DNA of 51,575 nucleotides, filler included, from Jimgerdemannia flammicorona (lineage: Eukaryota), in assembly GCA_003990765.1 (NCBI GenBank). It is 2 parts of 2 records of this genome, joined end to end, with 100 filler letters (N's around TTAATTAATTAA, not from the genome) between each part and the next. Parts side by side here need not be neighbours in the genome. Positions count along the whole stretch, not along the records: positions 1 to 25,749 come from RBNJ01000798.1; 1 more part is not named here. One strand, written 5' to 3'. Both the position numbers and the translations under genes were made by a program. Shown here piece by piece: positions 1 to 25,628 of this stretch (position 1 is its first letter; every line of letters begins with the position of its first letter). The notes beneath the pieces were generated by a model. The model had not been told where the DNA came from. It saw nothing but the letters and a program-made list of their open reading frames with translations, and did no database searches.

Positions 1-254
1 AAAAAAAAAAGAAGAACTCAACAAGGATATCAAAAACAAAAAAGGAAAGAGTTGTAAGTATACAACTCTATATCACTGAAATCACAGCAACCTTTGGCCA
101 ACTAGCAGAAATTCCCACATTTAGATAACAAATGAGAACAGAAATCTCGGACATCGGCAAGGACCAAGGTTGGAGAATAGTTGAAGCCAACAATGCACAA
201 GAAGATTCAGATGAAGAGAGTGAAGATAATTGAAAAACATCAGCCTATGCTACC

Positions 255-911: not shown

Positions 912-1330
912 ATAGTCAAGATATGAAGGATTCACCCTGTTGCAGTCATGCCACAGTACAAGTCGGAGAATGTAGCTGGAATGGACCTATCTACTACTAC
1001 ACACACAATACTCGAACCACAGACCACTACCATTCTAGGAACAGGAATTGAAGTAACCATCCCAACAAACCATGTTGGAATCCTCAAGATAAAGAGTAGC
1101 CTAGCAAAAAGTGAAATATCTATAGAAGGAGGAGTCATTGATTCGGATTATACTAGAGAAATCCTTCTCCTTGCCAGGAACCACAACCCAACAATCCCAT
1201 TTAAAGTAAGAAAGAAGGATCGGCTGGTGCAAATGCTCATCCTACCTGTCCTTAATCCAAGAATCAAGGAGGTCACAAACATCAGACAAACACAATGAGG
1301 AAGAGCTGGATTCGGCTCTACAGGAAGAGG
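912..1330 (+). pseudogene. Trimeric-type dUTPase domain of G1 pol
   Basis: All five dUTPase motifs in the protease frame: AGMDL, KSSLA, GVIDSDYT, DRLVQ, *GRAGFGSTG. The two TGA stops are explicable as CGA>TGA. Confidence 0.95.
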
Positions 1331-1499
1331 AGTCCTTACAGCAACTAAGATCACTAAGTTTGAGCACAAGAAGGAGGAAAGCCAAGACAAACACACCTAT
1401 ACAATCAGAAGAAACTTTCCCCTCAGGGAAGAATTGCAGGGCCTCTTGCTTACATTCGAGGATGTACTGGCTATGGATTTCAAGGACATCAAGACCAAG

Positions 1500-2844
1500 A
1501 AACCCTTGTGTTATCATGATGTCAATACTGGAGATGCAAAGCCAATCTATCAGAAGGCCTGCCCCATTACACCAGCATACAGAGAATGGCTCAAGACAGA
1601 GATCAAGGAAATGGAGGAATCTGGTATCATTGAAGAAGCCAGTAGCCCTTGGTCCTCCCCCATCATCCTTATACCAAAGAAAGAAAGCCAACTAGGAGAA
1701 TTTACACCAAGACTCTGCACAGACTATAGAAGACTCAATGAGGTCACAGAGAAGGACAGACAACCATTGCCAAACATTGGCAATATTCTTATCATGCTGG
1801 GGAATGAATCATGATTCTACACCACCCTGGATCTGTTCTCACGATTCTACCAAATCGGCCTTACACCTGAGGCCAGCAAAATATCAGCCTTCATCACCCC
1901 CAATGGAACCCATGTCTATCTCTGCATGCTCTTTGGAATGTGCAATGCACCAGCAAGCTTCCAGTGAATGATAAATAGCATCTTCAGAGATATTATGGAA
2001 AAATGGTTGATAGTATGTAGATGATGTGATCATCTTCAGCTGAACAGCCAAGGAGCACTTGGAACATATTGAGGAAATCCTCAGAAGGCTTCACAAACAT
2101 GGCCTCTACATTAAGCCCAAGAAATACAAGTTCAGAGAAGAAGAAATCGCATACCTTGGACACATTATCAACTGTAAAGGAACACACACAGACCCCACAA
2201 AGATCAAGGCAGTGGCAGCATACCCAGTATCTACCAGCATCATGGAAGCCTGAGCCTTCATGCGACTTGTATCCTACTATAGAAGATTTATTAGAAGATT
2301 CTCCCACATCACCAGCCCTATCTATGATCTGTTCAGAAAAGAGGTTATATTCCAGTGGACTCAGCAGCAGCAACTAGCCTTTGATGAGCTCAAGACTAGA
2401 TTGACCCAGGCCCCAATCTTGAGAAGACCTGACTGGACTCAGGAGTTTATTCTGCAAACAGATGCCAGTACAATGGGACTTGGAGCTGTCCTTGCACAAA
2501 AGAAAAATGGTGCCAAATATGTGGTAGCCTATCTCAGCCGAGGTACCCATGTGGCAGAGCAGTCCTATGAGTCTTATAAGCTGGAATGCCTTGCAGTCAT
2601 CTGGGCTGTAGAAAAGTTCCACTACTATCTGGCTGGAAGACACTTTACCATCCAGACAGACCACTCAGCACTCACCTGGTTGCTCACCACCAGTGAGCCC
2701 AAAGGGATCTATGCTCGATGGATCATGAAGCTGCAAGCATATGATGTCACAATCACCCACCACCCTGGAAGAACCAACACCAATGCTGATGCCCTATCAC
2801 AGATGCCCCAAAGGACCCCACCCCCACAAAACCACCATGAATAA
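1500..2844 (+). pseudogene. Reverse transcriptase + RNase H of G1
   Basis: SSPWSSP, RLCTDYRRLN, LDLFSRFYQI, FGMCNAPASFQ, YVDD, LGHII, FILQTDAS, TIQTDH. Frameshift near 2000. Confidence 0.95.
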
Positions 2845-4029
2845 GGAGCTATACTATAGAATCATCAGCTACCTGGGGCAGCAAAAGATGCCCCCGCATC
2901 TGGAAGAATGGACAAAAATAATTATTTATCAGACATGGAAACAATTTGAAACTGATGGAGAAACACTCAAGAAAGGACAACAATTTGTCATCCCCGAGCA
3001 CTGGAAGAATCAAGTAATAAAAGAAGTACATGAACAGGACACATAGGAGGAACAAATATATATGACAAAGCGAGAAGATCCATGTGGTGGCCCGGAATGG
3101 AAGAAGATATCAGACAATTTGTCAGGACTCATAACAGATGCCAGAAACAGAAACAAGACCAATGGGATCAAGCCCCTGGATTAGCAGACATCAAACCAAT
3201 ACCATTTTCCCACATTGCAATGGATGTAATTGGCCCTCTACCCCTGACATTGACTGGCAACTGATATGTCATTGTAATAGTAGATCTATTTACAAAATGG
3301 GTAGAGGCTGGACCCCTGAAGGAAGCCAATGCACAGTCAATTGCCAATTTCTTTCACAGAGAAATCATCTGCTGATTCAAGACCCCAAAGCAAGTTACTA
3401 CAGACAGAGGAACAGAATTCGTCAACCAGGTCCATGAGGTTCTTTACAAGAAGTATAAGATTCAATACATCAAGACCACAGCCTATTATCCACAAGGAAA
3501 CAGACAAGCAGAAAGAACCAACAAGACCCTCAAGAACATCATTGCCAAGATCTGTGATGAATATGGAAATTGGGACAACTATCTACCAATAGCATTATCC
3601 ACTCTGTGGGATATACGATCACAAAGCACCCATTTTATACTGCAAGAAATGCTATTCGGGGAAGAAGGTTCTGGTGGAAGTTTGTCAGCAACTAATGATG
3701 CAATCTGGAAGCATGTGGACATGGAGATATGGAGATTGCATCAAATTAGGAAAAAGGCAGAGGATTACATAATCAAGACACAGTTACTATAACAGAACAA
3801 TGTGGAAAAAACCCACAAGCCTCTGGAGATTATCAAGATAGGAGATGAAGTCCTAGTATATCGGAATATGGTAGAAGCTTCTTGGTCACGAAAATTGGAG
3901 CCCAAGTGGGAAGGACCTTATCTGGTACAAGATATAAAAGGGACTACTTTCTGGCTATGAAAGCCCTTAGGCACAATAATCCCCACCACCATTCATCAAA
4001 ACTGACTCAAGAAGTATCATGGCCAATAA
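2837..4029 (+). pseudogene. Integrase of G1 (HHCC-like, DDE core, GPY/F-like C-terminus)
   Basis: WWPGMEEDI...CQ, PFSHIAMDVIGPLP, VDLFTKWVEA, TTDRGTEF, AYYPQGNRQAERTN, KLEPKWEGPY; ends ...KKYHGQ* at 4029. No chromodomain seen. Confidence 0.93.
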
Positions 4030-4042
4030 CCGAAGCACTGCG

Positions 4043-4345
4043 ATGGCACTCAAGATCACTAGTGCTGCCCAAAGAGCCATCAAAAGACAATAGCACACCA
4101 CCAAGCCTCTGACCATAGAGGCATACTATGAGGATATTCAGAGCATTGTGCAGACTCATCACTCTCATATCTTGCACTTTAGAGCCTATCAATATCAGGC
4201 AGAATTTCAAGAGTACTTCAAGCTTGGACAGGTGCTCAATCAGGATCCAGCAAAGACCAAAGAGGACTGGATTGCCAAGTATCAACTCTCCCACTCACAG
4301 ATTACTATTGCCACAAGTTATTCCGAGAAGATGAACCAGCAATAG
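4043..4345 (+). pseudogene. Putative accessory ORF between integrase and 3' LTR of G1, unknown function
   Basis: ATG at 4043 opens MALKITSAAQRAIKRQ*HTTKPLTIEAYYEDIQSIVQTHHSHILHFRAYQYQAEFQEYFKLGQVL..., ~100 codons with one internal TAG (possible CAG>TAG). May continue to ~4490. Confidence 0.45.
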
Positions 4346-4497
4346 ACCACCTGAGAGGAGTAACTCCCACCGACTTCGAGAAAGTGAGAAGACATCATTG
4401 GGAAACAGTTATGCAGCAAATTGCACAGTATAAGACCATACAGATGATTGAAGCCTGGGAGTTTGAATAGATGCCTCAGGGATGAGACTATCTATTC

Positions 4498-4506
4498 AGG
4501 AGGAAG
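4498..4506 (+). other. Polypurine tract of G1
   Basis: AGGAGGAAG directly before the LTR TG. The same TATTCAGGAGGAAG context precedes the G2 3' LTR. Confidence 0.85.
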
Positions 4507-4507
4507 T

Positions 4508-4972
4508 TGTAATGGTATAGCCAAATTTGGAAGAAGGAAATATAGAATAGACACTTGATCACACCCAGTCCCAAAGTAGCATAGCCTTATAGTTAGCAGT
4601 CCTCAATTTCGACATTGTCTAAATTCTTAGACATTGTCTAAATTTTTAGACATTATCTAAATTGAATGTCCTGATCTAGTATAGTATTTAGACATTGTCC
4701 AAATATTTTGACAAAGTCCAAATGACTCATTTATTACTTAGCCACCCTCTCATAGCTAGCAAACTTGTATAAATAACCCAGTATCTTAGAGTGAATAAAC
4801 CTGAGATCGAAAGTGTTAGAAAAAGAACAAGTATACCGATAAAGGGACTTTTGGGATTACCTCTTAAACACATTTGGCCTCAAGGAACTACTGACTCTGG
4901 GAGTCAAGAAAACAAGAATTCAAGATAAAGAAATCTGATGTACTTGCCCATCTTAGCATCTGCTACATTACA
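4508..4972 (+). repeat. 3' LTR of G1 (465 bp)
   Basis: Perfect terminal inverted repeat TGTAATG...CATTACA; TATAAATA at 4768; AATAAA at 4794. Confidence 0.88.
4607..4722. promoter_or_regulatory. Array of five 17-bp palindromic units (consensus TTTAGACA-T-TGTCTAAA) in LTR U3
   Basis: Units start at 4607, 4626, 4645 (19-bp period) and 4687, 4706, ending ~45 bp upstream of the TATA box. The regulatory role is inferred. Confidence 0.7.
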
Positions 4973-5115
4973 ATAGCTAATATTAGATATAAGCAGCTAT
5001 AATGTGAGCTATATATATAGCATATCAGCTTGTCAGACTGTGCTTGTCCAGACTTGTAAGGGCAAGACTTACAAATCTTAGCTAATGTAAATCTCATTTT
5101 AATCTTACTTACAAA

Positions 5116-5680
5116 TTTTATTTTATTTTATTTTATTTTTATAGTTATTTAGACTTTATCATTTATTACTAAGTCAATCTATACCCATATAATATACAAT
5201 AACCTCACCCCTTACCCAATCCCCCTGGGGGGTCTACTCTCTACTCCTTTGTAATTAAAGATCACCAGACTATTGACCACTCCAATCCTCCCCCCACTCT
5301 GTTCATAAATCCTTTCTAATAGATATTAATAATGACTACTCTGGGGGCCCCACTTCATCCATCAACCAGATATGACATTCCCCATCAATCTCTTTTATCT
5401 CACTAACTACTCTTCTAAGCTTATTATCTTTTTCTCCTCAAAAACATACAGTTAATATCTAGTCAACTTTATCAATACTGCTAAAGTCCAACTAATAGTG
5501 AGCTACTTTTGATCAATATATCCCACCAATCTTTTTCTCAGATTATCCCCATGATCTCTATCATTATCCACATATCTCTCTATTTTAAGATATCTACTAA
5601 TCTCTATCCAAAAACCTCCTAAAGCCTTTTACTCACTAAGCCAATATTCAGATATATGTATAATTCTCCCACCTATCTGC
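5116..5680 (-). mobile_element. 5'-truncated 3' end of the LINE family with (TAAAA)n tail
   Basis: Reverse complement aligns with ~25205-25749 (e.g. ccaatccccctggggggtc vs ccaatccccctaggggggcc); tail at ~5116-5140. Confidence 0.8.
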
Positions 5681-6260
5681 TCACAAATCTCACTCTAACC
5701 TCACTATAAAACTCACTACAAATCTTACTCAAATATCACTATAAACCTTACTCAAACATTATTACAAATCTCAATCAATTAGAGCTTATGTAGAATATAC
5801 TGATTCATATAAAATATACTAAATTTCCAATGTATTTTTACTGTTTGGAGTTATATGATAGATACTAGTTTACTACTTATATATATTTATTCATTCATCC
5901 TCTATCTATCTTTAGATAACAAAATTGTCAATAATAGAATATGTGCTTACTACTATTAATTAATCTTTAACTATCACACCTTATATTGCTATCTCACTGC
6001 TCTCTAGCATACTGCCCCCCAGCTCACTGACTTCTGTTCTAGGCTCTTCTGTTTCTGGCTTCTCCTGCTGCTTGCTACCCCAACTCACCACCTCTCAGTT
6101 TACTGTGCTTCAGCTTGCTCACTGCTCCAAACTCCCCAATCCCCAGTTTACTACTCAGAGCTTATTCTCTGCCCCTCAGCTTGCTGCTCTCCAGTTTGTC
6201 TCACTACTTCTTAATTACTTTCCAGCTCTTGATCCCACTCAAGCTCTCAGTTCTCACTAT
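5680..6260. repeat. Degenerate short tandem repeats (ctcactacaaat-like at ~5680-5780; cagctcactgctc-like at ~5990-6260)
   Basis: Recurrent CTCACT-containing units of roughly 12-15 bp, visible by eye and heavily diverged. Confidence 0.45.
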
Positions 6261-6599
6261 TATAAAATACTTTTAAAATATTAAAAGTTCAAGAACTAAA
6301 TTTAAGAGAAATGCCAAACTATTAGATGATATATCTGAGAATAAATCTGAGGATATATCAGATATCTTTACTAGTTTATTATTATTAACAAGTATGAGAA
6401 AAAAAGAAAAAAAAAACCTAGTAATAGCCAAGTATAAATTCATATCATAAAGATAGTTTTATACATTATACTAATAGTTACAGTCATAAATTTGATTAGT
6501 TATAAAGGTAGTTGGTCATAGGAGTAATAAGTCATAAGAGTAGTTGATTATAACAGTGATCAGTTATCAGTCATAAAAATGGTCTATTATAAGTAGCTG

Positions 6600-7646
6600 A
6601 GATTCTAATCTAGTCTCATATATCTTTATTCAAATAGAATTTCCAAAGCAAGCTTATTAGTTGCAACTATTATACAACTTAGAGCTATATATCAAAGGTC
6701 AGCAATATCAATAATCTTAAATAACATCTCTAGAAGTATCATAATTCTATACTCTTATCTCTCTAGTATACTAAGAATTCTTATTGGTCTAAGATAGATG
6801 ATATTGTAAGTATAGATAAAATGGAATTCAAGAAATACTTAGAATTTTGATCAGTTAATTGTCAACTTCATTATCACTAGATATCGGTCATTGTCCACTA
6901 TTGAAAACTCTGGCTTCAAGTATCTACTTTATATATTATACTCTATTCTAGCTCTTCTATTGGCTGATATGATTTCACAAGTTATTTACAAGGAATTCAA
7001 ATTATTGTAGACTGCAGTAAAAGTAAGGCTAGCAGGATTTAAGTTAAAGGTATTGCTTATATTTAATTATTAGATATCAGATGTTAATATCAAGATCTTT
7101 CTCGGAATAATAGTCTATTGAATGATATTAATTACAAGATATATAATATTATCTTAGACTTTGTAAATATCAACAAAATAACACATATGGATACCAATCT
7201 TGCAAAGAGTCTAGAGCTAGTAATAGATAATTTATTACTTAGTGACAATCAAATAATTACTATTATATATAACAATACTAGTAATATTAATAGTCTGTTT
7301 GGGAATCTCAATCATCTGCTTACTCATATATACTATTTCAGATATATATTGAATCTTGTCAATTATAATACTCTTGGTTCGCTTAATGAGCTTATTGGAA
7401 AGCTACAGATATTGATAAAGAAGATCAAAAATTTAGTTTAATAATAAGTACAACTGATAAAAATCTATAAATTATCTTGAATTTCCATTTTGAAGCCTCT
7501 ATTAGATATTATAACAAGATAGAGTTCTATATATAAAATGTTAACATATGCTCTAGAGATTTATTAGATAAGATTTTTTATCTATTTGTAGAATTAGAAG
7601 TATTTTGATACTAAATAAATTGATATTACAATCAAATAGAGTCTAG
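6600..7646 (+). mobile_element. Decayed hAT-superfamily transposase, N-terminal/central part
   Basis: BED-finger remnant (NNLK*HL*KYH near 6710-6740), IITIIYNNTSN (for ..ITxDNASN), HIYYFRYILNLV (for HIxCxAHxLNL), and LLDIITR*SSIYKML at ~7499-7543 (for DVxTRWNSTYxML). Confidence 0.8.
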
Positions 7647-9211
7647 TGTAATAGTGAACTCAAAATGATGATATCAGCACAAGAGACAGCCTTTTCTTAT
7701 AAGCCACCAGATTGGAGTACAAGAAGATCATATGGCATGACTCACCTAGGCTATAAGATGAGTAATGATGATCAACTATAAGACATTGTGACCACAAGAT
7801 GAATATCTTGAGAAATATAAAAGAAGGATCAAGAAACTACTATAGCAGCAGCTCAAACAAAGCTTACAGAAATAGTTCTAAAGACTTACTACAAACAAAT
7901 ACCTGTCACTTACCAAACCTCAAGGTCCAGGAACTACCAAGGCCCCTTAGTCTAGGAAAGAATATTCCAAGACAACAGAAGAGCCATAAGGATCAATACA
8001 AGAAGGACTTCTAGTCTCAATCTAGGTACTAGTAACCCCTATCATTATATCCTCTACTACTGTGAAATGGAAACAAGGATCACTATTACTATCAAATATC
8101 TCTGGATATAGCAGGAATATGAAATAGGAAACCTCCTCTGCTGGAAATTCCCTCAGGCCAGTTACTAAGAAATACAAGATACTACCTTTATAGATATATA
8201 TGAAATAAGAACAGCTAAGAAGATTCATCAGGTCTTCAGGTATGTACCATGGTAAATCTACAATATAGAGTATACTAGGATCTCAGACTTCAAGGAACTA
8301 TCAGCCTGCTGTACCAATGCACTAGAGGCTATGGTGGCCACAGAAGCCCAGTCTATACCACCCTCAATAATAATGAGGTAGGAGGGTTCTGGAATCCCAT
8401 CCTTAAGGACAATTCTGATCAATTCCTGCAAGAATTGATCTCAGCATTCCAAGGCCCCAGTATCTAGGTTAGACCTTTCCAAGACCCCACATTTATTCCT
8501 TATTTTGTGGAAGAGAATGTCATAGATTGGGGAGCCCCCACCACTGCTGAACATGATGATGTTATCAACAATGACATCATCCTACATGATATGTGTGAAT
8601 TATGTGAAATATGCAATATATATGAAATGGAAGAAATGTTTATAGATCTCATTTCCTTCAGCAGCAATGAAGATGAAGTCCCTATGATCCTGAACATTCT
8701 GCTTTAAGTTCTTGGTAATACTGAATTTTACCAGTATTCTTTTTCTGTGTAACTGTTATTCTTCTGGCATTCTGATCTTGTGTAACTTAGAATTTCTTCT
8801 GGCATCTTTTTCCTGTACCACTGAAATCTCCTGATATCTTGAACTTATACAACCATTTATACAGATACTTGAACTTGTACTTACAACTGTAGTTTACTGT
8901 ATTCTGGGATTTTATTTGATTATTGGAATTTATATTTAGCTTTATAACTTAGCAACTATTGAATTATATTTTGTATAAATATTCCTCTTATTTCCTTTGA
9001 AATAAAGCCAGTTCCAGTTCACTTACCCTCAATTCTACACAAGCCATCTAAGAGATAACAAGACAGTTTAAAGATAAGAAGTTTGAGGACTATAAGACCT
9101 TAGAAAGGTACTCCAGTAAGAACTTACTTATAACAAACTTGTAGTTAGTCTAAGAGAATATCTTAAAGAGAATCTGATGTATTTGAAGGACTCAGTAACT
9201 TCTATGTGACA
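7647..9211 (+). repeat. 5' LTR of G2 (1565 bp)
   Basis: TGTAATA...TGTGACA; collinear with 14889-16393; TATAAAT at 8974; AATAAA at 9001. Confidence 0.93.
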
Positions 9212-9214
9212 ACT

Positions 9215-9228
9215 TGGTACCCATTGGT
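9215..9228 (+). other. Putative primer-binding site of G2
   Basis: TGGTACCCATTGG 3 nt after the LTR end; TGG complements tRNA CCA. The cognate tRNA was not identified. Confidence 0.6.
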
Positions 9229-9259
9229 TGGTGATTCAAGACAAATCTCTCACTTTCAA

Positions 9260-12200
9260 GATGAAAAACAAACAACTACCACAACAACTACCCTGACTAC
9301 AAGAGTCACTCCTGCAAGAATTCCAGATAAGATAGAAATGCATCTCCTCACATTCTATAGATATACTACCAAAGGGTAAATCCTGATCTTCATTGAAGAC
9401 TTTGAACAATTTTCCACTATATCAGCTCTCAATATAGATACACAATTGGCCCTTCTACCTATCAGCATCAGAGGACCTGCTCAAGACAAGTCCAATATAG
9501 CCACCAATGTTGATACTAGTGCAGCCAAACTTGCCAATATGAAGAACTTCCTCAGAACCTCATACTATACTGAAGAGATCAAGCAAGCTCTCAAGGATTA
9601 ACTCAACACTATCTGCTAGAGACTTAGTGAACATCCCAACTCATTACTTCTGAATCTGCCACCGGATTGTCTTGGCTGACTAAGATGATGCTCTCAAGAA
9701 ACAAATAGCTAATTCAACCTTTCTCAAAGGAGTTTACCCTGAAATTGTCCTAGAAATCCAGTCTACCCCAGCTGCTCTGATCCTTGATCAGAAAGTGGTC
9801 TTTGTATAGAGATATTGGACCACCAGACACCCTGCCAAACACTCAATGAAGAGAATAACTAGCATTAAGATAGAGCTATCAAAGCCAACCAGTATCATAT
9901 CTACTATAGTTGTAAACAGAAAATCATCCCCACCTACCCCCAAGGTAGCCAAAGCTGACCCAGTGGAGGAACTTACCAAGCAGTTTGCTGAGATGAATGT
10001 ACACCTTGGTGATGTTGTTAGAGAAGTCTGAAGTGCCAACAGGAGACCAGTATAGAGATTTGCAGTTGCTATAGAAGAATGCAATATCACATGTTTCAGA
10101 TATAGAGAAGAAGACCACTATGCAAAGAATTGTATGACTAAAACAAGATACAAAGCCCAACCATATAATACTACCAGAACTAGAGAACAAACTAATACAG
10201 TCATTATTGAGTAGATTAGTGATACTGATGATGAAGAATACTATGAGTAGTCTGAATTCTACCCTATTACTGAAGGTACCAGAACCTGGTCCAAGCCCTA
10301 TGACAAGAAGGGCAATAGCAAGCCAGTTGGAAGACCAAAGAAGACTCCAGCTATTACTATTCAAAGCAAGACCCAATCTAAGGAGATTGATCAAGATATA
10401 GAGTTAGATGAAGCTGTATGCCAGATTATTTGAAGGCACTACTCCAGTCTCAGTTGAAAGTGAAAGCAACAAAGAACAGAAGCTATGCAAGACCAAGATT
10501 CACTAGTATAATATCTATAAGAATCTCTAGGAACAGAAGGTCAATGCTACTTTTGGACAACTAGCTGAAGTCTCTGCCTTCAGACTGTAGTTGAGAGTAG
10601 GACTTATAATCACTATCAAGAACCAAGAGTACAAGATTGTAGATGCTCACAACGTACAAGAAAAATCTAAAGACTCAGGTAAGAAATCTGAAGACCAGTG
10701 CAAGACATCAGCCTATACTCCATATCAGATTGAAGATTGTATCTTTGATGCCACCATTGATACTGGTACTGGAGAATATCTTATAAGCAAGAAGACATTT
10801 GACTGCCTAGGCTGGAAAATTAAAGAGTCCATCAAAATGGTCTATGTCACAGCAGATAGTATAGAAGCTACCCTCCTAGGCAAGATCTGAGAAGTATCCA
10901 TCAAGATAGTAGGGGCTACAATTCCAGTAGATGTGATTGTTATAAGTACCACCAACTATGATATTCTCATTGGCAACCAATGGCTTCACCAGACCAAGGC
11001 TGTCATTGACCTCAATACCCAGAAGATGTAGATCAACTATAGAGAAAGAAAGGTATGAGTCACTATCAATATCTACAAAAGAGTACTACTAGACATGGAG
11101 AAAGGAGATGAAGAAGATAGAGAAGTCTTCATACACTTGATATACATGAATAAGAGCAAGACACCCAAGCTCAAAGATGAGCCAGTGGTATAATAAGATC
11201 ATTGATGGCTATGTCCCTCAGAGAAGATGCCCCCATAGTACCTAGATATACTGCTCTAAACACCTGAATGACTGCTGGTCCTATATCAGTGAAGTCAGGT
11301 AAATCCATCAACAGAAGTATAAGCAAGAAGCAGCTGAACCAAAAAGGGAAGCTGAAGAAGATGACCAGCCCCCAGAGCTTCAAGCTGAGATTGATGATGA
11401 AGAGGAATAAGAACTATATATCACTCTTAAGGTCAAGAAGTTACACCCTAAAGCCAAGATCCCAGAATGTAAGACTGAAGGAGCCATAGGAATAGACCTT
11501 GTCAGCATTCAAGATGCTATCCATGAACCACAAACCACCAATCTACTTGGTACTGGAATTGGAGTCAAGTTGCCAGAAAACCATGCTGGAATTATCAAGA
11601 CCAGAAGCAGTCTGGCCAAAAGCAAAATCTCAGTTAAAGGTGGAGTAATTGACTCTGATTATACTGGTAAGATCTTCCTCATAGTTAGGAATCACAACTC
11701 CATCAACTCATTCAAAGTCAAGAAGCATGACAGGATTGGCCAGATACTGATCTATGAAGTCAAGAATCCTAAGTTCACTAAAGCCATCAAACTCATCAAG
11801 ACTAAGAGAGAAGAATAAGGCTTTGGATCTACTAGAAGAGGAGTCTATGCTGCTACTACGATTACCAAACTTGAGCACAAGAAAGATAAGGACCAGAATA
11901 AGGACACATATACCATTGGAGAAAACTTTCCCCTAGAGGAATAACTTCTCAAGATCCTATATCAGAATGAAGGAATACTCACTATAGCCTTCAGAGATAT
12001 CTATAATCAAGAATCCAAGTACTACTATGAAGGTGACACTGGTGGTACCAAGCCCATCTACCAGAAAGCCAGACCTATACCACCTGCCTACAGAGAATAG
12101 CTGTGAGCAGTACTCAAGAAAATAAAAGAAGCTGGAATCATCAAGTAAGGTATCAGCTCCTGGGCTTCACCCATTGTCCTCACCACAAAGAAAGCAAGTC

Positions 12201-14530
12201 TAGAGAGTTTGCCCTAAGACTCTACATTGATTATAGAAAGCTCAATGCAATCACCAAGAAAGAAAGGCAGCCCTTGTCAAATATTCAAGAAATCATTACC
12301 ACTCTTAGAAGTAATGCCAAATACTATACCACCTTGGATCTGTTCTCAGGCTTCTATCAGATTGGTCTCACTCAAGATATCAGTGAGAAATCAGCCTTCA
12401 TTACACCTGATGCCACCTATGTCTACCTATGAATATTATTTGGAATGTGTAATACTCTAGTAAGTTTTTAGCTAATGATGAACAGAGTCTTCAGTAATGA
12501 GATTGGAAAATAGCTCTTTATCTATATAAATGATGTGATCATCTTCAGTAACATTATACAGAAATATGTCAAACACATACAACTGACTCTCAAGATGCTC
12601 AAGGAGCATGGTCTCTATATCAAGCCTAAGAAATGCAAGTTTGTAGCTCAGGAAATTGCCTATCTAGGATAAATCATCAGGAATTCACATAGACCCCATG
12701 AAGATTGAGGCTGTTGAAGTCTACCCAAGACTCAGAACAGCTACAGAAATCCATGTCTTCCTTGAACTGGCCTCCTACTACAGAAGATTCATCAAAGAAT
12801 ACTCTAATATTGTAGCACCTATCTATAAGCTACTGAAGAAGGAGACCAAATTCGAATAGACTAAAGAATATCAAGAAATCTTCAATGAACTCAAGATCAG
12901 ATTAACCCAAGCACCCATTTTCAGAAGACCAGATTAGAACCTAGAGTTCACCCTATAGACAGATATAAGTGCTATTGGACTTGGAGCAGTTTTAGCTCAG
13001 AAGACAGATTGACATGAATATGACATCTTCTATGTAAGCTGAGGTATCCATGGAGCAGAACAGAACTATGAGTCATGCAAGCTTAAATACTTAGCAATAA
13101 TTTGGGCAGTAGACAAGTTTTACTACTATCTGGCTAGAAAATACTTCATTATTCAAACAGACTATTCCACTCTCACCTGGCTATTCCACACTCTGAACCC
13201 CAAAGAAATATATCAGATAAATCTACAGGCTACAAGAGTATGACATTACTATCAAGCACTACTCAGGAAGAACCAATACCAATGCTGATACACTCTCAAG
13301 AATATCCCAAAACACCCCATCAAGACTATTTAATATGAATAAGGAGCTATATTATTGATTAATCAGCTATCTTGAGCAGTGGAAGATGCCCAACCACCTT
13401 GAACCCTGGACTATCACTATCATCAACTGGACTTGGAAACAATTTGAACTTGATAATACCATACTTAGAAAAGGAGGAAAGCTCATAATATCTGAACACA
13501 AGAAGTATCAAGTAATGGAGGAAGTATTTGAACAAGGATACCTAGGAGGAATCAATATATATAATAAAGTAAGAAGAACTATGTGGTGATCTAAGATGGA
13601 AGAAGACTTGTGCCAATTTGTCAAAGAGTATAATAAGTTTCAGAAACAGAAATAAGATCAGCAAGACCAGATATCTAGATCATCAAGAATTGAGCCTATT
13701 TTCACTATATCACAATAGATATCATTGGACTACTACCAGTGATACTATCAGAAAACCACTACATGATAGTTATTATAGATCTCTTTACTAAATAGATAGA
13801 AGCAGGAGTACTACAAGTAGCCAATGCTCTCTCTATAGCTGACTTCCTGTACTGAGAAATCATCTGCCACTACAAGACACCAAAGCAAATTACCACAGAC
13901 TGTAGCTCAGAATTTGTCAATGGATTCTATGAGATAATGTATCAGAAATACAAGATTCAGCATATCAAGACCACTGCATACCACTCTCAAGGAAATGGAC
14001 AGACAGAAAGAATCAACAAGACTCTCAAGAACACTCTGGCAAAGATCTTGGACATATATGACAATTGGGATAACTATCTCCCAACTGCTCTCTCTGTCCT
14101 ATGAGATATATGATTACAGAGTACACACTTTACCCCAAGAGTACTGCTCTTTGGAGAAGAAGATTTCAATGAAACCTCAGCTATAAATCTGGATCTAATA
14201 TGGAGACAGATTGACTCAAAAATCTGGAAACTACACCAAATCAGAAAGAAGGCTGAAGATTACATCATTAAGTCACAAGTACTGACAAGAAAGAATGCAG
14301 AAAGAATTACAAGACCCTAGAACCTATCCAAATTGGAGAAAAGGTCCTACTATATTAAAATATGGTAGAAGTCTCATAGTTATGAAAACTGGAGCCCAAA
14401 TGGAAAGGACCCTTCATGTATGAGATATCAAGGGAACTATCTTCTGGCTTAGAAAACTCTCAGAGACCATACTGTCTATCATAATATACAGGAACAGACT
14501 CAAGGAGTACCATAAACCTATACAAGAGAA
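9260..14530 (+). pseudogene. gag-pol of G2 (many stops and frameshifts)
   Basis: CFRYREEDHYAKNC at 10092-10133 (CX2CX4HX4C with TGT>TAT); ATIDTG; dUTPase ~11430-11842 (RSSLA, GVIDSDYTG, GFGST); LYIDYRKLN, LDLFSGFYQI; integrase ending KLEPKWKGPF. Ends approximate. Confidence 0.92.
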
Positions 14531-14888
14531 GCAAAATATGATAACCACCCACAAGGTTCTAGTCTACAAATCATCAGCATGTCCTGTAACCAGCAGATAA
14601 TCTGTCTGGACTATTCTCTAAGAGATATGGCACCAGCAACTACTCATCTATAAGACTTTCAATGCCAGAGGAGTTTGAATCATCAATTGATTGGTCAAGA
14701 TCAGAATTAGGCCATGGCTCAATATAAAGGTAGTGACCCTTCACCATCATGTCAAAATATATAGGGAAGATGCCAGCCCATAAATACTACTTTTTGACCC
14801 CCTGCCAGAGGTTATGAGATCAGCAAATTTTTTAGACTAGATCAATAAATAAGGATATTCAAGAGAAGATCCTTATTCAGGAGGAAGA

Positions 14889-16393
14889 TATAATGATGAT
14901 CTCACAATGATGATATCAGTACAGGAGACAGCCTTTCCTTACAAGCTACCAGATTAGAGCATAAGAAGATTATGGCATGACTCACCCAAGCTACAAGATG
15001 AGTAATGATGACCAACTATGAGCCATTGTGACCACCAGATGGATATCTTGAGAAATATAAAAGAAGGATCAAGAAACTATAGTAGCAGCAGCCCAAACTA
15101 AGCTTACAGAAATAGTTCTAAAGACTTACCATAAACAAATGTCTGCTGTTTACCAAACCTCAAGGTCCAGGAACCACCAAGGCCCATCAGTCCAGGAAAG
15201 GATGTTCCAAGACATCAGAAGAGCCATAAGGACCCATATAAGAAGGACTCCTAGTCTTAACCTAAGTACTGGTGACCCCTATTATTATATTCTCTATCAA
15301 TGCAAAATGGAAACAAGGATCACCATTGCTACCAAATGCCTCTGGATGTGGCAGAAATATAAAATAGGAAACCTCCTCTGCTGGGAATTCCCTCAGGCCA
15401 GTCACTAAAAAATATGAGATGCCACCTCTATAGATGTATATGAAATAAGGATAGCTAAGATGATTCAGGCATCCACTATGATCAATTCTCAACTTGGAGT
15501 ACACTAGAATCTCAGACTTCAAGGAACTGTCAGCCCACCATACCAATGCACTAGAGGCCATAGTGGCCACAAAATCTCAGTCCACTATCACTCTCAATAG
15601 TGATCAATTTCTGCAAGGATTGATCTCAGCATTCTAAGGCCCCAGTATCCAGATTAGACCTCTCTAAGACCCTATATTTATTCTTTATTTTGCAGAAGAG
15701 AATGTCATAGATTGGAGAGCCCCAACTGCAGCTGAACATGATGATGTCATTGGTGATGACATTATCTCATGCAACATGCACAAAGTATGTGAAATGCACA
15801 ATACATATATGCAAAATGAGTGAAATGTTTGCTGATCTTATTTTCTTCAGCAGTGATGAAGATGAAGCCCCTATAATCCTGAACATTCTGCTCTAAGTTC
15901 TTGGTAACACTGAAATCTATCAGTATCCTTTTTTTGTATAACTATTATTCTTCTGGTATTCTGATCTTATATAACTCAGAAATTCTTCTGGCACTCTTTT
16001 TCTATACTACCAAAATCTACTGATATCCTCAACTCATACAACTATTTAAACAGATACTTGAACTTGTACTTATAACTATAGTTTTCTGTGTTTCAGTATT
16101 TTATTGATATTTATATTTAGCTTCATAATATAGCAACCATTGAAGTATATTTTGTATAAATATCTCTCTTATTTCCTTTGAAATAAAGCCAGTTCCAGTT
16201 CACTTACTCTCAATTCTATACAAGTAATCTAAGAGATAATAAGACAGTTTAAAGATAAGAAGTTTGAGGACTATAAGACCTTGGGAAGGCACTCTAATAA
16301 GAACTTACTTATAACAAACTTATAGTTAGTCTAAGAGATACACCTTGGAGAGAATCTGATATATTTAAAGGGCTCAGTGACCACTATGTGATA
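14889..16393 (+). repeat. 3' LTR of G2 (1505 bp)
   Basis: TATAATG...TGTGATA, i.e. both terminal dinucleotides mutated to TA; ~50-bp internal deletion near 15600 relative to the 5' LTR. Confidence 0.93.
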
Positions 16394-16580
16394 CTAGATA
16401 TATTATATACTATAGATAAGCAACTGAGTGAAATATCTAAAGATGCACAGCAAAAATTTTAATTAATTTGCAGATTTTTCAAGCCTTTTGCCAAAGTAAC
16501 AATCATAATATTAGCTTTGAAATATTCTGTACTAGTAGCTGTTATTTTACTATTTAATTTACTATAGGAGTACCTCAAGA
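16394..16580 (+). mobile_element. Continuation of the hAT transposase after the G2 insertion
   Basis: LICRFFKPFAKVTIIILALKYSVLVAVILLFNLL matches the hAT LxPFxxxTxxxSxxxYPT segment that follows TRWNS. Confidence 0.7.
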
Positions 16581-18950: not shown

Positions 18951-19913
18951 TCCTGAATGTTTACTAGTTCTCCAAGCTGTGGTATGTGGCATATTACTTA
19001 GACTTTCTGGCCTTAGTAGTGAAAAGGCTGATGAAACTGGCTAGAGATTGGATTTGAACAGGAAGAAGGTCCCAGATTAGTTGGGATACCCTTGTAGAGC
19101 CAGTGGTTAGGGGAGGCCTAGGCCTTGTAGACTTCCCTAAGTGGCTATACTGCCTGTGAGCCTAGTGGTTGAAAAGGGCTATTGAACTATAGGGAGGAGG
19201 CTAGGTTCTGCTGATACAGAAGGTATGGGAGATGAGATTCTCACCCTGGGGGTCCTCAGGAGATTTGCTCTCTCTGGTGGGTCTGAATGGAAGCTGATGG
19301 CTACAGTATATATAAGATCTTCTAGTGGGGAGTAGTGGATGGAGTACACCAGATAGGCCTATGCTGGTAAGGCAATGAGGGGGGGGAGGTGTGGGGCTCT
19401 GCTATGTAGTAATGAGACAGACTGTTGCTAGGGGGGGTTCTGCTAGCTAAGTTTGTTATTGGTGATGGGGTTGAGTGTCAGTGGAGACTTAGCCAGAATC
19501 TTTGGCTGAGTAGTTGACAGGCAGTGAGGATTGGTGAGGAGTGAGACATCTGGTCCTGGAGTGGTGAGGTGTGGCAGTGACTTCCTTCCAAGTTCTGGGT
19601 GATGTGGTGGTGCATACTGTAAAGGAATATTATGTTGAACTTCTATGCTGGGCATCTGGTGGATGATGGCAGATTGGATTGTGAGGAGTGTTATAATGTA
19701 GAGCAAGCTGGGGGTTTTGTGCAGACACCAGAACATTGGCTGAGAGAGTGTGAGGTTTTGGGGGACTTTTGGATAGCTATAGGGGACCAACTAGGTGTAG
19801 AAAGGAGGCTAGATAGAGAGAGAGATTACTGAGAGGATTTGAAATCTAGACTAGTGGGAGGTGTTGGCAATTGGTGGCTCACTGTAGGGTGGGTTATTAC
19901 AGTGTGGGTAGGC
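18950..19913 (+). mobile_element. 5'-truncated LINE fragment (ORF2 C-terminal part)
   Basis: Collinear with ~24445-25410 of the full-length copy, including the CEEC...EHWLREC motif; stops abruptly where the full-length copy begins. Confidence 0.9.
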
Positions 19914-20058
19914 ATACACCTTTCTCTTCATATTACACAAACTTCAAGTAATAGTTTTCAACACAATGTGGAGAAAAGGTATTATAAAAATCTCATTGAG
20001 CAAGAGTTCTGATGTACATGCTGGGTCAGGTAGACCTGGGGCTTTCAGCTAGCAGCAT

Positions 20059-21980
20059 GTGGAGAGAGGTTATAGATTGGAGATGGGGGCTTTTGGAGAG
20101 TCAAAGGGTGGTGAAGGCTCTGGAGGAGGACCAGTGTCTGGTGGATCTGGGGGAAGGCCTGGTCCCTCCAGCTTTGCCAACAAGGTGAAGGTGAGTGGAT
20201 GGCCTGCTGGAACCAGGGCTGGCACTGCTGATGGGAAGGGCAAGGCTAGCATCAGGAGGGAGAGTGGCCCTCAGGGGGGAGAGGTGAGCATTGGGGCTGG
20301 AGAGGCTGTGACTGGGGGTGTGACTAGTGATGAGAGTATGATAGGGGATCAGAAAAAAAAAAAGAGATATGATGGCTGATGGCCAGGTGGCGCAGGGGCT
20401 CCCAATGCAGAAGGGGGACCTGGCAGATGGTGTAATAGGGCTAATGGTGGCCCCATTACTCAAGAAGTCGATCTTGGAGTTTGTGGCTACCTTGTGCTTT
20501 TGGGGCTTAGCAGTGATGGTGAGGATGGTCCTGGGGCTTATTTTGAAGCAGGTGGCTGGAGCAGCCTTGGTGAAGTTCCTGAAGAGTCTGGAGGGGGTTG
20601 AGGTGGGCTTTGAGGAGGCAGGCCCACTGGATGAGGCCCTGAAGACTAGAGTAGTGGTTAGGGAAGTGGTGGTCCCCATGGTGCAGTGCTTGAGATGGGA
20701 CCCCAGAGTGGTGCAGCTTCTGGTGAGGGGGGTACTGACAGTGATGAAGGAGGAGACTAGGAGGAGGGTAGAGGAGGTGATGGTAGAGTATGGTGACATG
20801 GTGGACATTGGCTTCCAGATGTGGGAGGGGACCATATTCAGGACAGATGATGTCAATGTCAGAATTCAGCTGGCAGGGAAGGAGGCCACTGAGAAGATGA
20901 GTGACTGGCCCTCAGTGCTAATGTGGGGGGCTTTTATCTGTAAGGTGTTGAGGGTGAAAGAGAGTGAAGAGGAGGAGGAGGACTTGTTGGAGGCTCTGGA
21001 GGATTTGAGTGGTGCAGTTGAGAGGAGGGCAAAGGTCTGGAGAGTGTTTGAGGTGTCAACACATCTGGAGATTGTGGATGGGAAGCATATTCACACTGAC
21101 AAGAGGCAGTGGGAGTGGGCACAGGGATGCAAGAGGCAGAGGGAGCTATTGGCAAGTATGATAGGAGAGGCAAAGAAGAAGGCAGATGGGGCTGAGGTGT
21201 CTGGGGGCATCGAAGTTAGTGTCTGGACTAGTAAAGGAGAAGGGGAGGTGGAGGCAAGCAAGGAAGGAGCTGGGAAGGTACTGAGTAAGGACCCCTGTAC
21301 AGATGGCACATTTGAGGTCTGAGAGCAGAAATTGGATGCCATCCCCCCCCCCCTTATCAGGAGGGGCCTGGCTGTGAAGAGAGGGACAATAGCAGATGTG
21401 CTGATGCAGGGAGCCCAGTAAGTGCACTTTGGGGTCCCCAATGTGGCAAAAGGGTTCCAGGTGGTGACAGTTGGTGAGGACGAGCTGGTGGATGTTCCTG
21501 AGGAGGAGTGGGATAAGGCTGCCAGTATAAGAGCTGATACCACTATATTGGATATAGGGCAGCCAGGGACTCCAGGTGGGGAACCTGCTGTAGATAAGTA
21601 AGGTGATGGATAACCTTGTAGCTGAGGAGTTGGAAGAGGTGGACCTATGTGTAATTCCTGAGGAGCATTTGGTGGAGGTACTGAAGGTGGAGATTCTGGT
21701 GATTTTCATGAAGGAGGAGGGATATGAGGTTGATAAGGTGAGAGAGGAGGAGCTAGCAGTTGTTACTGGTGAGTGGGCTGCCTACTGTTGGACAGAGCAT
21801 CATGATTTGCGGCTCTGGCAAGAGGTCTGTCTGGAGTATCATAAGGACTTTGAGGAGAGAGAGGATGGGGCAATGGCTGAACTTCTGGAAGGGTTGGAGG
21901 TACAGGAAGCTGAGAAGAAAGAACTAGCAGCAGAACATGACTTGGACTTAGTACAGGAGGAGTTGAATGTGGATTTGTAG
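20059..21980 (+). pseudogene. LINE ORF1 (Gly-rich N-terminus, acidic C-terminus; no recognised domain)
   Basis: Consecutive ORF pieces 20059-20379, 20369-21322 and 21603-21980; homologous text in the second copy at ~27700-29621. Start codon uncertain. Confidence 0.75.
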
Positions 21981-22011
21981 AGGATGTATATGAGATATAA
22001 CATTATTTCTT

Positions 22012-25000
22012 ATGAACAGTACAACCAACATTTTCTCTTTGAATGTGAATGGGTTAAGGGGATCTGGGTAGCGTAGGAACATTTTTACTTGGCTTAAGGG
22101 ATTGGAGGCTGATCTCTTTTTACTGCAGGATGTATGGTGTGAGGATGAGGAAAATCAAGTGGAGTGGACTAGAGAATGGAGAGGGGCTACTGCTTGGAAT
22201 GGCAAAGTGGTGATTCTGGTGAGGAAGAGTAGAGGAGACTTGGGTGGAATTCAGAGCTATGGGGACTGTTTGGTCTGGGGAGAATAGTACTGACCTGGGT
22301 GGGAATCAGTAAGGGTTGGCTCTTGCTACTGCCCTGCAGTTAGGGGTGAGCAGATTGAGTGGATTAGGGATCTGTTGGAGGAGGGTGTTTTCTTGGAGGA
22401 AGGTGTCGATGTTCTGAGAGGTGACTTTGATATGGTGCAGGATTCTCAGCTAAATAGAACTGATGGAGGAAGAAGTGCAGGGGGGAGGAGTGGTGGACTG
22501 AATAAGTAGGAGGAGGTGGAGAATCTTAGCTCCTTAGGGGATATGGGTAGAACACTGTGGGGTGAAAGGAGGGTTTATATATACTGGATAAATGGACTAG
22601 ATACAAGGATTGACTGGCTTCTGACAGCCAAGTGTTGGGGTGCTAATGCTTGGAGGACTCTGGAGGTAGAGTGGTGCCCTTGGTCTGATCCCTGGGGGCT
22701 ATTGGGGCAGGGACAGTTTGGGGGGAGTGGAGATGGACCCAGACATTGGTACCTTAACTCCTCTCTGCTGGCCAAGAAGGGGTTGTAAGACACATAGGTA
22801 GAGGATGTCCAAGTGAAGATTGCCAATAGATACATGAGAGATCATCTGTGGAGGTCCAGTGGATGAGGTTGAAGGAGGTTGAGAGGGTTTATTGGGGAGG
22901 GCTTGGTAGGGAGACTGGGAGGCAGAGAAGGAAGTGAGTACAGTATGCTTCTAATAGACTAATTAGATTGCAGATGAAGTGGGCCGAGTTGCTTCATTCT
23001 GAAGGGGTAGAGGATTGGAGGTTGGAGCGGGTGAAATTGGAGGTAATGGAGCTGCAATAAATATTGTGAGCAGAGGAGAAGATCTAGATGAAAGGAATGG
23101 CTGTCAGACTATAGTGGCAGGGGCTTGAGGAGGGAGAGCAGTCCACTAGATACCTCTCGAGGCTTCTCCAAGCTAGGAGGGTGTGCCACTGATGGGATGG
23201 GGTCTTGGATGCCAAGGGAGGTATGGTGCATAGCATACAGCAGATCTTGGGAGTACTGAAGGAAAAATGGTGGGGTCTGTAGAGTGAGGAGGAAGGGGGG
23301 GCTGAGGAAAAGGCAATTGAAGATACACTGGAGGAGTGGGTGCCACTGCAAGTAGAATAACTAGGTGATTTGATCTTACCAGTCCAAGAGGAGGAGATCC
23401 AGAGAGTCCTTGCAGCAACTAAGCTAGGGACAGCACTAGGAGAGGATGGGTTATCTTGGGACTTCTGAAAAAAGATGCGAAGGTTTCTGGAGTATTAGGA
23501 GAGATGGCTGCCCTCTGTGACCATGTTCTTCATAATGGCAAGTGGGTTGGTGAGCAGGACTTGGGGCTGTTGGCCTTATTGTACAAAGATAAGGGGAGGA
23601 GGGAGGACTGGAAGAACTGGAGGCCAATCATGCTTCTGAATATGGACAGGATGATGGTGACTAAGGTGATTATTGCAAGGCTACAGAAGGTTGCCCAAAA
23701 GGTTCTGGGTGAGGAGCAGCAAGGCTTTGTAGGAGGTAGGCTTATCAGAGATGAGACTACCTGGGTGCATGGTATCATTGAGGGGGCCCGGGCTTGTGGA
23801 CTGGATGGTAGACTGGTCTTTTTGGACCAGGAGAAGGCCTATGACCATGTATAGCGGGTATGGCTAGGCAAGGTACTGGATAGAATTGGTGTTTCCCCAA
23901 GGTTTTGGGCTTCTATACTGAATTTGTTGGAAGGCAGTAGGGTAGCACTGTTGTGTAATGGTCATAGGGGTTTGGCATTTCCTTTGTGAAGAAGAGTTCC
24001 TCAGGGAGACCCACTGTCTCCTATCCTTTATGCCCTTTCATTGGAACCTTTGATGGATAGGATATATCAGAGGGTGGCAGGGCTCTCTATATATAGTGTG
24101 GTGTGGAAGGTGGGGGCTTATGTGGATGACAGAGTAGTTGGACTTGGATCAGTAGTAGACATTGTAGTACTCAAGACAACAGTGGAATGGTATGAGGTGC
24201 ACTCTGGAGCAAAACTCAACTGGCATAAGTGTGAGACAATGGTGTTAGAGAATGGGCTGGTGAGAGGGAATGTCATTGGAACAATTGTCCCCACAGGAGA
24301 GGTGGTGTAGTATTTGTACATCTTCCTCTCTGTATATTGGTCTGTCTTGCCACAAGTGTGGTGGGAGAGGAAGGTGGCCATTTGGGGAGAGACTCTTAGA
24401 GGTTGGGGGAGTTGCCACATCTCTCTGGCAGAGTGGGTGTCAATTCTGAATGTCTACTGATTCCCCAAGCTATGGTATGTGGCCTATCACTTAGACTTCC
24501 CAGCTTGGGTGGTGAAGAGACTGATGAAACTGGCTAGAGATTGGATTTGGACAGTGAGGAGGTCCCAGATCAGTTGGGATACTCTTGTAACACCAGTGGT
24601 TAGGGGAGGACTAGGCATTGTGGATTTCCCTAAGTGGCTACACTGCCTGCAAGCTTGGTGGTTGAAAAGGGCTGTTGAACTACAGGGAGAAGGTTGGGTA
24701 CCACTGCTGCAGAAGGTGTGGGAGATGAGGTTCTCTCCCTGGGGGTCCTCAGGAGATTTGCTCTCTCTGGTGGGCCTGACTGGAATCCAATGGCTGCAGT
24801 ATAAGGACTTCTGGTAGGGGGTGGTAGATGGAGTACACTGGATAGGACTGTACTGGCATGGCAATGAGGGGGAGGTGCTGTGGGGTCCAGCTATGTGGTG
24901 ATGGGACAGACTCCTTCTGAGGAGTGTTCCGCTTGCTAAGTTTGATATTTGTGATTGAGTGGAGTATCAGCAGGGTCTTGGCCAGGATCTTTGGCCAAGT

Positions 25001-25628
25001 AGTTGGCAGGCTGTAGAGATTGGTGAGGAGTGGGACTGGGCAGAATTCTGGTTGTGGAGTGCTGAGGTGCAGCAGTGGCTTCCTCCTAAGTTCTGGGTAG
25101 TATGGTGGTAGTTGCTGAGGAGGAATATCATGTTGAATTTCTATGCTGAGCATCTTATAGAGGGTGGCTGTTTCGATTGTGAGGAGTATTATAATGTAGG
25201 GCAAGTTGGTGGATTTGTGCAGATGCCTGAACATTGGCTGGGAGAGTGTGAAGTTCTGGGGGACTTTTGGATAGCAGTAGAAAATCAGCTGGGTGTGGAG
25301 AAGAGACCAGATGGAGAGAGAGATCACTGGGAGGATTTGAACTCTCAGCTAGTGGGTGGTGTGGGCAATGATTGGCTCACTGTAGGGTGGGCTTTAGCAG
25401 TATGGGTAGGGCTGGCTGGAGATTGGCTCTTTGTTTTTCGAGGAGAGGCAGCAGATGGGTTTACAGGAGAAGTTATTGAGGTGGGAGGAGTTGATGGGGG
25501 ATCTGCTGACTGGGTGGTGGGTGGGTTGGGGTCTCCAGGGTGATAAACATCATTGCCTGGTAGAAGGAATCTGTAAACAGAGTAGTGGGTGGGTGGAGAT
25601 GGTATTAGATAAAGTAGTCTTTTATTGA
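22012..25628 (+). pseudogene. LINE ORF2: APE endonuclease + reverse transcriptase + CCHC
   Basis: SLNVNGL, LLQD, GDF, TRIDW, WSD; GEDGL, KNWRPIMLLN, QQGFVGGR, LDQEKAYD, PQGDPLSP, AYVDD; CFDC-x17-HWLGEC. Confidence 0.92.

Follow-up and report, generated by a model that had tools for sequence, protein, structure and literature searches.

A probable accessory gene inside the U3 region of a decayed Ty3/Gypsy retrotransposon from Jimgerdemannia flammicorona

Long terminal repeats (LTRs) of retroelements are usually treated as purely regulatory and masked in annotation, and insertion dating assumes that they evolve neutrally. A Ty3/Gypsy retrotransposon in the genome of Jimgerdemannia flammicorona (GenBank assembly GCA_003990765.1) raises the question whether the U3 region of such a repeat can harbor a protein-coding gene. 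We analyzed a stretch of 51,575 nucleotides from this assembly, composed of two parts joined end to end (hereafter the window; positions 1 to 25,749 come from RBNJ01000798.1), in which lies a Ty3/Gypsy element that is both old and dead; its host is an Endogonales-like member of the Mucoromycota. The initial annotation of this locus had described accessory open reading frames (ORFs) that run from behind integrase across the polypurine tract (PPT) into the 3′ LTR, together with further sense frames inside both LTRs, and had proposed a lineage with several small accessory proteins, possibly anti-silencing factors. We consider it highly probable that a selected U3 gene of ~270–320 amino acids (aa) exists, which is decayed in this copy, and that the PPT-crossing frame is noise.

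One open reading frame within U3 and its relatives

The two sense frames described inside the LTRs (15139–15408 and ~8374–8707) exist and both lie upstream of the main TATAAATA (16155/8974). They are halves of one decayed sense ORF located wholly within U3 of each LTR, because an outside protein, P0241, runs collinear through both. P0241 was the only match obtained in an exhaustive phmmer (HMMER) search with positions 15061–15405 as query against 1.84 billion representatives (E = 1e-25, 76% identity). This protein comprises 247 aa free of stops and ends ...DDDDEAPLILNFLL. It first follows the 15139–15408 frame and then the 8374–8707/15482–15896 frame, with the window pieces being 62–68% identical to it. 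When the 5′ LTR half (8279–8704) served as query of a word-index protein search, four candidates were returned, none of them at E up to 10, and P0241 was missed.

Querying a metagenome collection with P0241 yielded one locus, L001, on a contig of 1345 bp. L001 has an uninterrupted frame 3 of 343 codons (323 aa when counted from the first ATG), a length that 0 of 2000 dinucleotide shuffles reach (shuffle maximum 203), and the CpG observed/expected ratio of the locus is 0.10. Downstream of the ORF stop, TGTATAAATA is followed by AATAAA in the same layout as in the window LTR. Identity to the window LTRs amounts to 57% over the ORF and to 45–46% downstream of it. We read L001 as a diverged sister LTR that retains the same gene. 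A further search for related loci with a two-row alignment recovered no relatives (0/45 in viral contigs, 0/41 in genome contigs).

In the window, the ORF starts 250 nt into the LTR, ends 259 bp upstream of the main TATAAATA at 16155 and is broken in both copies (Table 1). The 3′ LTR copy carries premature stops at 15406, 15415, 15479, 15635 and 15665; in addition, it has lost 11 bp near 15463 and, without a change of frame, 45 bp near 15600, and has gained 4 bp near 15808. The 5′ LTR copy carries premature stops at 7953, 8109, 8166, 8253 and 8465 and lacks 1 bp near 8355. Of the 46 window residues that align with Arg of P0241, 18 are C, H, Y, W or Q, which is the expected trace of CGN decay by CpG loss. 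What had been taken for several small accessory proteins are hence pieces of one ORF of ~270–320 aa that stops and frameshifts have split. An antisense frame of 104 codons is open opposite the U3 ORF (15262–15576, minus strand); it is most simply a by-product of sense coding.

Selection on the U3 frame

Could all of these frames, those in U3 included, be open by chance within a repeat that is decayed and rich in A? Under C-to-T/G-to-A mutation stops are only gained, so de-mutating opens any frame, and the initial argument from stops being explicable by transitions is uninformative, as this is true of every stop codon. Several features speak for chance: in all six LTR frames, ~3/4 of the stops (21–29 of 27–41 per frame) are common to both LTRs, the longest open run of the 5′ LTR is unremarkable against shuffles (P 0.14–0.19), and the part behind integrase is at chance level. 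The 15139–15408 frame of the 3′ LTR, which is open from 15061 onwards (115 codons), is on its own modestly unusual against shuffles (P 0.012–0.025). The LTR frames are clearly non-random only together with the outside relatives, and before these were found we held them to be probably noise. The intact 247-aa relative, the 343 open codons in a sister LTR of 57% identity and the frame-specific third-position excess described below, with its shifted-frame and post-insertion controls, contradict chance for the U3 ORF. Chance holds only for 14601–15060, and as an explanation of all frames it is exceedingly improbable.

We determined the distribution of nucleotide differences over codon positions by comparing L001 with both LTRs of the window. 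In codon pairs derived from tblastn, positions 1/2/3 show 80/53/119 differences in 236 codons for the 5′ LTR and 80/48/119 in 220 codons for the 3′ LTR. The corresponding ratios of nonsynonymous to synonymous differences per site (pN/pS) are 0.37 and 0.33 in frame, and 0.89–1.33 when the reading frame of the same alignment is shifted by one or two bases. A nucleotide-only MAFFT alignment of L001 positions 69–707, which served as a control free of protein-scoring bias, gave 70/46/109 and 66/43/105 differences. We further distinguished (i) pre-insertion changes, where both LTRs agree and differ from L001, and (ii) post-insertion changes, where the LTRs differ from each other. Pre-insertion differences are distributed 45/29/85 over the codon positions (p = 1.6e-7), post-insertion differences 35/25/31 (p = 0.46).

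Because the third-position excess is confined to the pre-insertion differences, the pattern points to purifying selection before and drift after insertion. The U3 ORF has evidently evolved under purifying selection in the active lineage and, since insertion, has decayed neutrally via C-to-T/G-to-A transitions and small indels. The general hallmarks of a coding gene are present: the frame is open in independent copies, shows an excess of third-position and synonymous differences, and does so in one reading frame specifically. The initial claim that U3 has sense coding capacity upstream of the TATA box is thus borne out by P0241, L001 and the codon-position bias. That annotation had named persisting stops in the youngest copies and a lack of codon-position bias as findings that would speak against coding; the less decayed copies are free of stops (P0241 intact, L001 open throughout its 343 codons) and the bias is present.

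Conservation of U3 could also reflect cis-acting DNA or RNA elements, such as enhancers or RNA structure, rather than a protein. U3 regions carry promoters and enhancers, and a report on the fungal element crapaud describes complex selection on its U3 (PMC10787394). Cis-acting elements, however, yield neither 3-periodic substitutions such as the 45/29/85 distribution nor open frames of 247–343 codons, which renders this explanation very improbable.

Alternatively, the LTR may contain a transduced host gene or a fragment thereof, in which case P0241 would be a host gene and the constraint that of the host. The protein is an orphan, P0241 comes without genomic context, and LTR retroelements do capture extra ORFs, as described for bdelloid elements (PMC5408684). 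Against such an origin, one match in 1.84 billion representatives leaves no wider host family visible, the ORF of L001 is followed by TATA and AATAAA as in an LTR and CpG is depleted there as in repeats, and two LTR families that have otherwise diverged to ~45% identity carry the ORF at the same position. We consider a host gene improbable.

The evidence for a selected U3 gene has its limits. There are only three independent sequences, namely the window element, P0241 and L001. P0241 is known from the protein alone, and L001 lacks an internal retrotransposon part, so that its LTR status rests on homology, CpG depletion and the TATA/AATAAA layout. Synonymous sites are saturated (pS 0.71–0.79), and omega itself is therefore not measurable. 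Finally, the premature TAA at 15406/8166 is common to both LTR copies where the relatives carry Gln. Either the ORF was broken before insertion or the change from CAA to TAA occurred twice; if it was already broken at insertion, the U3 protein would have been dispensable in cis, or would have acted in trans.

The spacer behind pol, the element and its surroundings

The frame described behind integrase reads as had been stated: frame 14001 gives ...TSR*SVWTIL*EIWHQQLLIYKTFNARGV*IIN*LVKIRIRPWLNIKVVTLHH...DPLPEVMRSANFLD*INK*GYSREDPYSGGRYNDDLTMMISVQETAFPYKLPD*S. It is the last pol frame read beyond its stop. This pol frame ends ...IIIYRNRLKEYHKPIQEKQNMITTHKVLVYKSSACPVTSR at TAA 14598–14600, ~30 codons past the NRLKEY motif (LK.Y, the end of the integrase GPY/F module). 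A related, decayed Gypsy element that likewise bears a dUTPase (927–1298) lies at 202–4112, is cut by the window start and shares 67% nucleotide identity in pol. The corresponding frame of this sister element ends likewise, its stop lying at a closely similar distance from where the DNA alignment ends (92 nt against 87 nt).

Between 14601 and 14957, the post-integrase frame contains 7 stops in 119 codons, where composition predicts 0.066 per codon, and the three plus-strand frames of 14601–14888 contain 6, 5 and 5 stops per 95–96 codons. The longest open run of 14530–14888 comprises 48 codons, and 1000 dinucleotide shuffles average 58 codons (P 0.77). A Pfam search of six frames at E up to 10 gave no credible match for the post-integrase region, with two chance-level rows only, and nothing in the post-integrase region of the sister element (4000–7646) resembles the spacer or the U3 ORF at the protein level. 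Given this stop density, the unremarkable open run, the lack of a family match and the lack of anything similar in the sister element, the segment 14601–14878 is non-coding: it is the usual spacer between pol and PPT, and the frame that crosses the PPT is a product of chance. The last stop of this frame, TAG 14955, is indeed TGG in the 5′ LTR, as had been pointed out; this demonstrates a post-insertion change only.

The proposal of several small accessory proteins, one of which overlaps PPT and U3 as nef does, draws on two features of the window copy: its frames do not join, and one of them runs through the PPT and remains open for 40 codons from the start of the 5′ LTR. The relatives, however, read both LTR pieces as one protein that begins well inside the LTR, and the PPT-crossing frame is at chance level up to the point where it ends at three consecutive stops common to both LTRs (15003–15011). 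This arrangement is hardly credible.

The element displays the features of Ty3/Gypsy (Metaviridae) retrotransposons, i.e., paired LTRs, TG..CA termini (5′ LTR), a target-site duplication (TSD), a site resembling a primer-binding site (PBS), a PPT and the order protease (PR), reverse transcriptase (RT), RNase H and integrase (INT), in agreement with the initial description of a Gypsy element with a 1.5-kb LTR. Self-comparison of the window gave direct repeats at 7649–9209 and 14891–16391, and alignment sets the LTR boundaries as listed in Table 1. The LTRs match in 1273 of 1499 ungapped columns (84.9%); the differences comprise 193 transitions, 33 transversions and seven indels. The 5′ LTR has the termini TGTAAT...GTGACA and the 3′ LTR TATAAT...GTGATA, which are the same after G-to-A and C-to-T changes. 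CpG is absent from either LTR and occurs four times in the internal part, and the CpG observed/expected ratio is 0.00–0.02 in the element compared to 0.94–1.06 in the genic half of the window. Read-through translations yield, in three frames with many stops, the Pfam order RVP_2, dUTPase, RVT_1, RT_RNaseH(_2), Integrase_H2C2 and rve, corresponding to a pol order of PR-dUTPase-RT-RNaseH-INT. LTR divergence, the decayed three-frame pol and the loss of CpG identify the element as dead, old and heavily mutated by transitions. At the C/T differences between the LTRs, the next base is A in 52 of 115 cases and A or G in a further 17; since many of these sites precede A, non-CpG transitions also contribute to LTR decay.

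A protein search with pol gave 159 matches at E up to 1e-10, the best of which share 45–49% identity over ~1/5 of the query, and no close relative among them offers an integrase tail for comparison. PF00692 is absent among the 120 pol matches listed. The C-terminal chromodomain of integrase that marks the chromovirus branch is not found in the element: six frames of 14400–14901 gave no match to PF00385 at E up to 10, a search for which a decayed remnant may lie below detection. A chromodomain remnant at 14530–14888 was considered and rejected on the basis of this six-frame Pfam search.

Table 1 Features of the element and of the U3 ORF in window coordinates
Feature	Position	Strand	Remarks
TSD CTAG	left 7643–7646, right 16394–16397	.	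flanks both LTRs
5′ LTR	7647–9211	+	1565 bp, TG...CA, then PBS-like ACTTGGTACCC
TATAAAAG motif, 5′ LTR	7816–7823	+	75 nt upstream of U3 ORF start
U3 ORF, 5′ LTR copy	7899–8707	+	start codon ATA 7899; natural stop TAA 8705
5′ LTR main promoter	8974–9006	+	TATAAATA 8974, AATAAA 9001
Internal gag-pol	9212–14600	+	decayed, three frames; PR, dUTPase (11411–11818), RT, RNase H, integrase
Non-coding spacer, pol stop to PPT	14601–14878	+	5–6 stops per 95–96 codons in each plus-strand frame
PPT AGGAGGAAGA	14879–14888	+	abuts 3′ LTR
3′ LTR	14889–16393	+	1505 bp
TATAAAAG motif, 3′ LTR	15056–15063	+	75 nt upstream of ATG
U3 ORF, 3′ LTR copy	15139–15896	+	ATG 15139 kept; natural stop TAA 15894
3′ LTR main promoter	16155–16187	+	TATAAATA 16155, AATAAA 16182

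The fungal host assigned at the outset is confirmed by a catalase exon (48741–49157, minus strand) that is closest to Jimgerdemannia flammicorona (80% identity), followed by Endogone sp. (66%) and by Syncephalis, Mucor, Mortierella and relatives (50–60%) from Mucoromycota and Zoopagomycota. The CpG observed/expected ratio is 0.00–0.36 in the transposon-filled region 1–30000 and 0.94–1.06 in the genic region 31000–51575, with TpG and CpA in excess, a pattern suggesting that methylated CpG has decayed by mutation in the repeats only. A LINE-like element carries Exo_endo_phos (~22036–22632) and RVT_1 (~23609–24244) domains, both on the plus strand, and internal direct repeats (18949–19843/24442–25341 and 20417–22279/28029–29923). 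Over this element, the GC skew reaches +0.43 to +0.49 (G >> C on the plus strand) at 19000–25300 and 28000–30000. Between the LINE-like copies lies a Gypsy RT-RNase H fragment (26274–27326, plus strand), flanked near 25.9–26.1 kb by a long run of stop-codon triplets that forms a simple repeat. In the genic region, a frame of 471 aa is open at 37202–38617 and shows BTB-like and SPRY-like features by eye; a decayed partial duplicate follows 3.3 kb downstream (40610–41481), with repeats at 37396/40732 that are 88% identical.

The predicted protein, its expression and known analogues

The predicted U3 protein is an orphan that is soluble and acidic. Its isoelectric point is 4.5–4.6, and maximum Kyte-Doolittle scores of 0.59 and 0.47 over 19 residues reveal no hydrophobic segment. 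Conserved features comprise F-x-DIRRAMR-x3-RR-x-PS-x-NL, MWQEYE, IHQIFRHAPW, DNPDQF and PYFVEENLIDWR. The basic patch DIRRAMRxxxRRxPSxNL is conserved near the N-terminus and a helical core is predicted, while the last third of the protein is strongly acidic (net charge of −17 over the final 67 residues of P0241) and closes with the conserved hydrophobic end P-x-x-LNF-x-L. Pfam searches gave nothing credible for all frames of the spacer and both LTRs, for P0241 and for the L001 ORF, and a PDB profile search returned no relative (best E 0.24). AlphaFold2 models of both intact relatives are poor (predicted local distance difference test scores of 38.3 and 37.6, from a shallow alignment). A resemblance to SUMO-interaction motifs or acidic activation domains may lie in the DVID-like repeats and in the acidic stretch ahead of the hydrophobic end. 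RNA export factors of the Rev/Rex/Rem type combine an arginine-rich RNA-binding motif with a leucine-rich export signal; in the U3 protein, a patch of the RRAMRTRSRR type is conserved and PLILNFLL is present at the C-terminus.

How would such a gene be expressed? In addition to the TATAAAAG motifs of the two window LTRs, L001 carries the motif 57 nt upstream of its ATG. In 3/3 sequences, the leader between TATAAAAG and the start contains no ATG in any frame, the first ATG downstream of the motif is that of the ORF, and the TAA within TATAAAAG closes the ORF frame upstream. Because motif and ATG-free leader are conserved between two LTR families, the U3 ORF may be transcribed from its own promoter at TATAAAAG, a second promoter within U3. 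The resulting transcript would end at the AATAAA of the LTR, so that each LTR, solo LTRs included, would constitute a self-contained gene. We regard expression from such a promoter as a real possibility, approaching an even chance. It has to be weighed that a motif as simple as TATAAAAG lies here in A/T-rich DNA and that a 75-nt leader free of ATG is obtained by chance in ~3/10 of cases. By analogy to the U3 genes of complex retroviruses, the protein might instead be translated from a spliced subgenomic RNA carrying the 3′ U3, an alternative that we rate as nearly as probable.

With regard to function, the basic, helical N-terminal part may bind nucleic acid or a host protein, and the acidic tail with its hydrophobic end may recruit host machinery in a transactivator-like or SUMO-interaction-like manner, which would raise the element's own expression. 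That the U3 protein is a trans-acting nuclear accessory factor raising the expression of its own family is conceivable by analogy, though on balance doubtful. Rather unlikely is the most far-reaching proposal, in which the LTR would be a gene cassette composed of its own TATA, a ~300-codon ORF and a poly(A) signal, and every LTR would express a nuclear factor that boosts or protects the expression of the family. Two modes of action are envisaged for such a factor: transactivation, or anti-silencing linked to SUMO or to chromatin.

Foamy-virus Tas/Bel1 and HTLV Tax are small nuclear transactivators with an acidic activation region that act on their own LTR; their genes lie between env and LTR, and foamy viruses use a second, internal promoter. 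Tas/Bel1 and Tax provide a working analogy only, as no homology of the U3 protein to them emerged and their genes are located outside U3. The nearest analogue by position is sag of MMTV (mouse mammary tumor virus), known as the "LTR ORF", a sense ORF of ~300 codons inside U3 of both LTRs that encodes a type II membrane glycoprotein. Such U3 ORFs can in principle be expressed from RNAs containing the 3′ U3 or from own promoters. Like sag, the U3 ORF is a sense ORF lying wholly in U3 and present in both LTRs; unlike sag, it encodes a protein without hydrophobic segment, sequence similarity or Pfam match, in a fungal Ty3/Gypsy element without env. The predicted gene thus occupies the place of sag and is not a member of the Sag family. 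The nef gene of HIV/SIV starts upstream of the PPT, overlaps PPT and U3, and encodes an N-terminal MG myristoylation signal. Both nef and the U3 ORF are 3′-end accessory genes overlapping U3, but the latter starts inside the LTR with MSAV (window) or MPAI, and the stretch crossing the PPT is non-coding here.

The known additional ORFs (aORFs) of LTR retrotransposons are placed internally, either upstream of gag or in the interval from pol to the 3′ LTR, and brtn of the element Boty is reportedly antisense. These aORFs and brtn resemble the U3 ORF as lineage-specific extra ORFs of Ty3/Gypsy elements and differ from it in that the U3 ORF lies wholly inside the LTR. Published examples are lineage-specific aORFs in plant and rotifer LTR retrotransposons (PMC7264820, PMC5408684), brtn as an extra ORF of the fungal element Boty (bioRxiv 10.1101/2021.04.13.439636) and, drawn in a figure, a fungal "add. 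ORF" (PMC2864245); in PMC7264820, the phrases "in the LTR", "within the LTR" and "inside the LTR" occur zero times. The window element shares its backbone, in which a dUTPase is located between PR and RT, with fungal Gypsy elements such as PosPlaTy3-5 of Postia placenta (PMC2864245); it differs from these by its Mucoromycota host, by the lack of a detected chromodomain and by the gene in its LTR. A literature search on ORFs inside retrotransposon LTRs, with most subscription journals outside its scope, found no case besides MMTV sag.

For LTR biology, a selected U3 gene means that part of the LTR evolves non-neutrally in active lineages. If this holds true, the retrovirus-like placement of accessory genes arose independently in fungal retrotransposons, and solo LTRs may still encode protein. 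Should the cassette proposal apply as well, the family would be a "complex" LTR retrotransposon, an example of a U3 gene beyond the retroviruses of vertebrates. The selected U3 gene itself would provide, in its orphan protein family, a handle on how retroelements face heavy methylation and mutation-based silencing in the transposon-rich genomes of mycorrhizal fungi.

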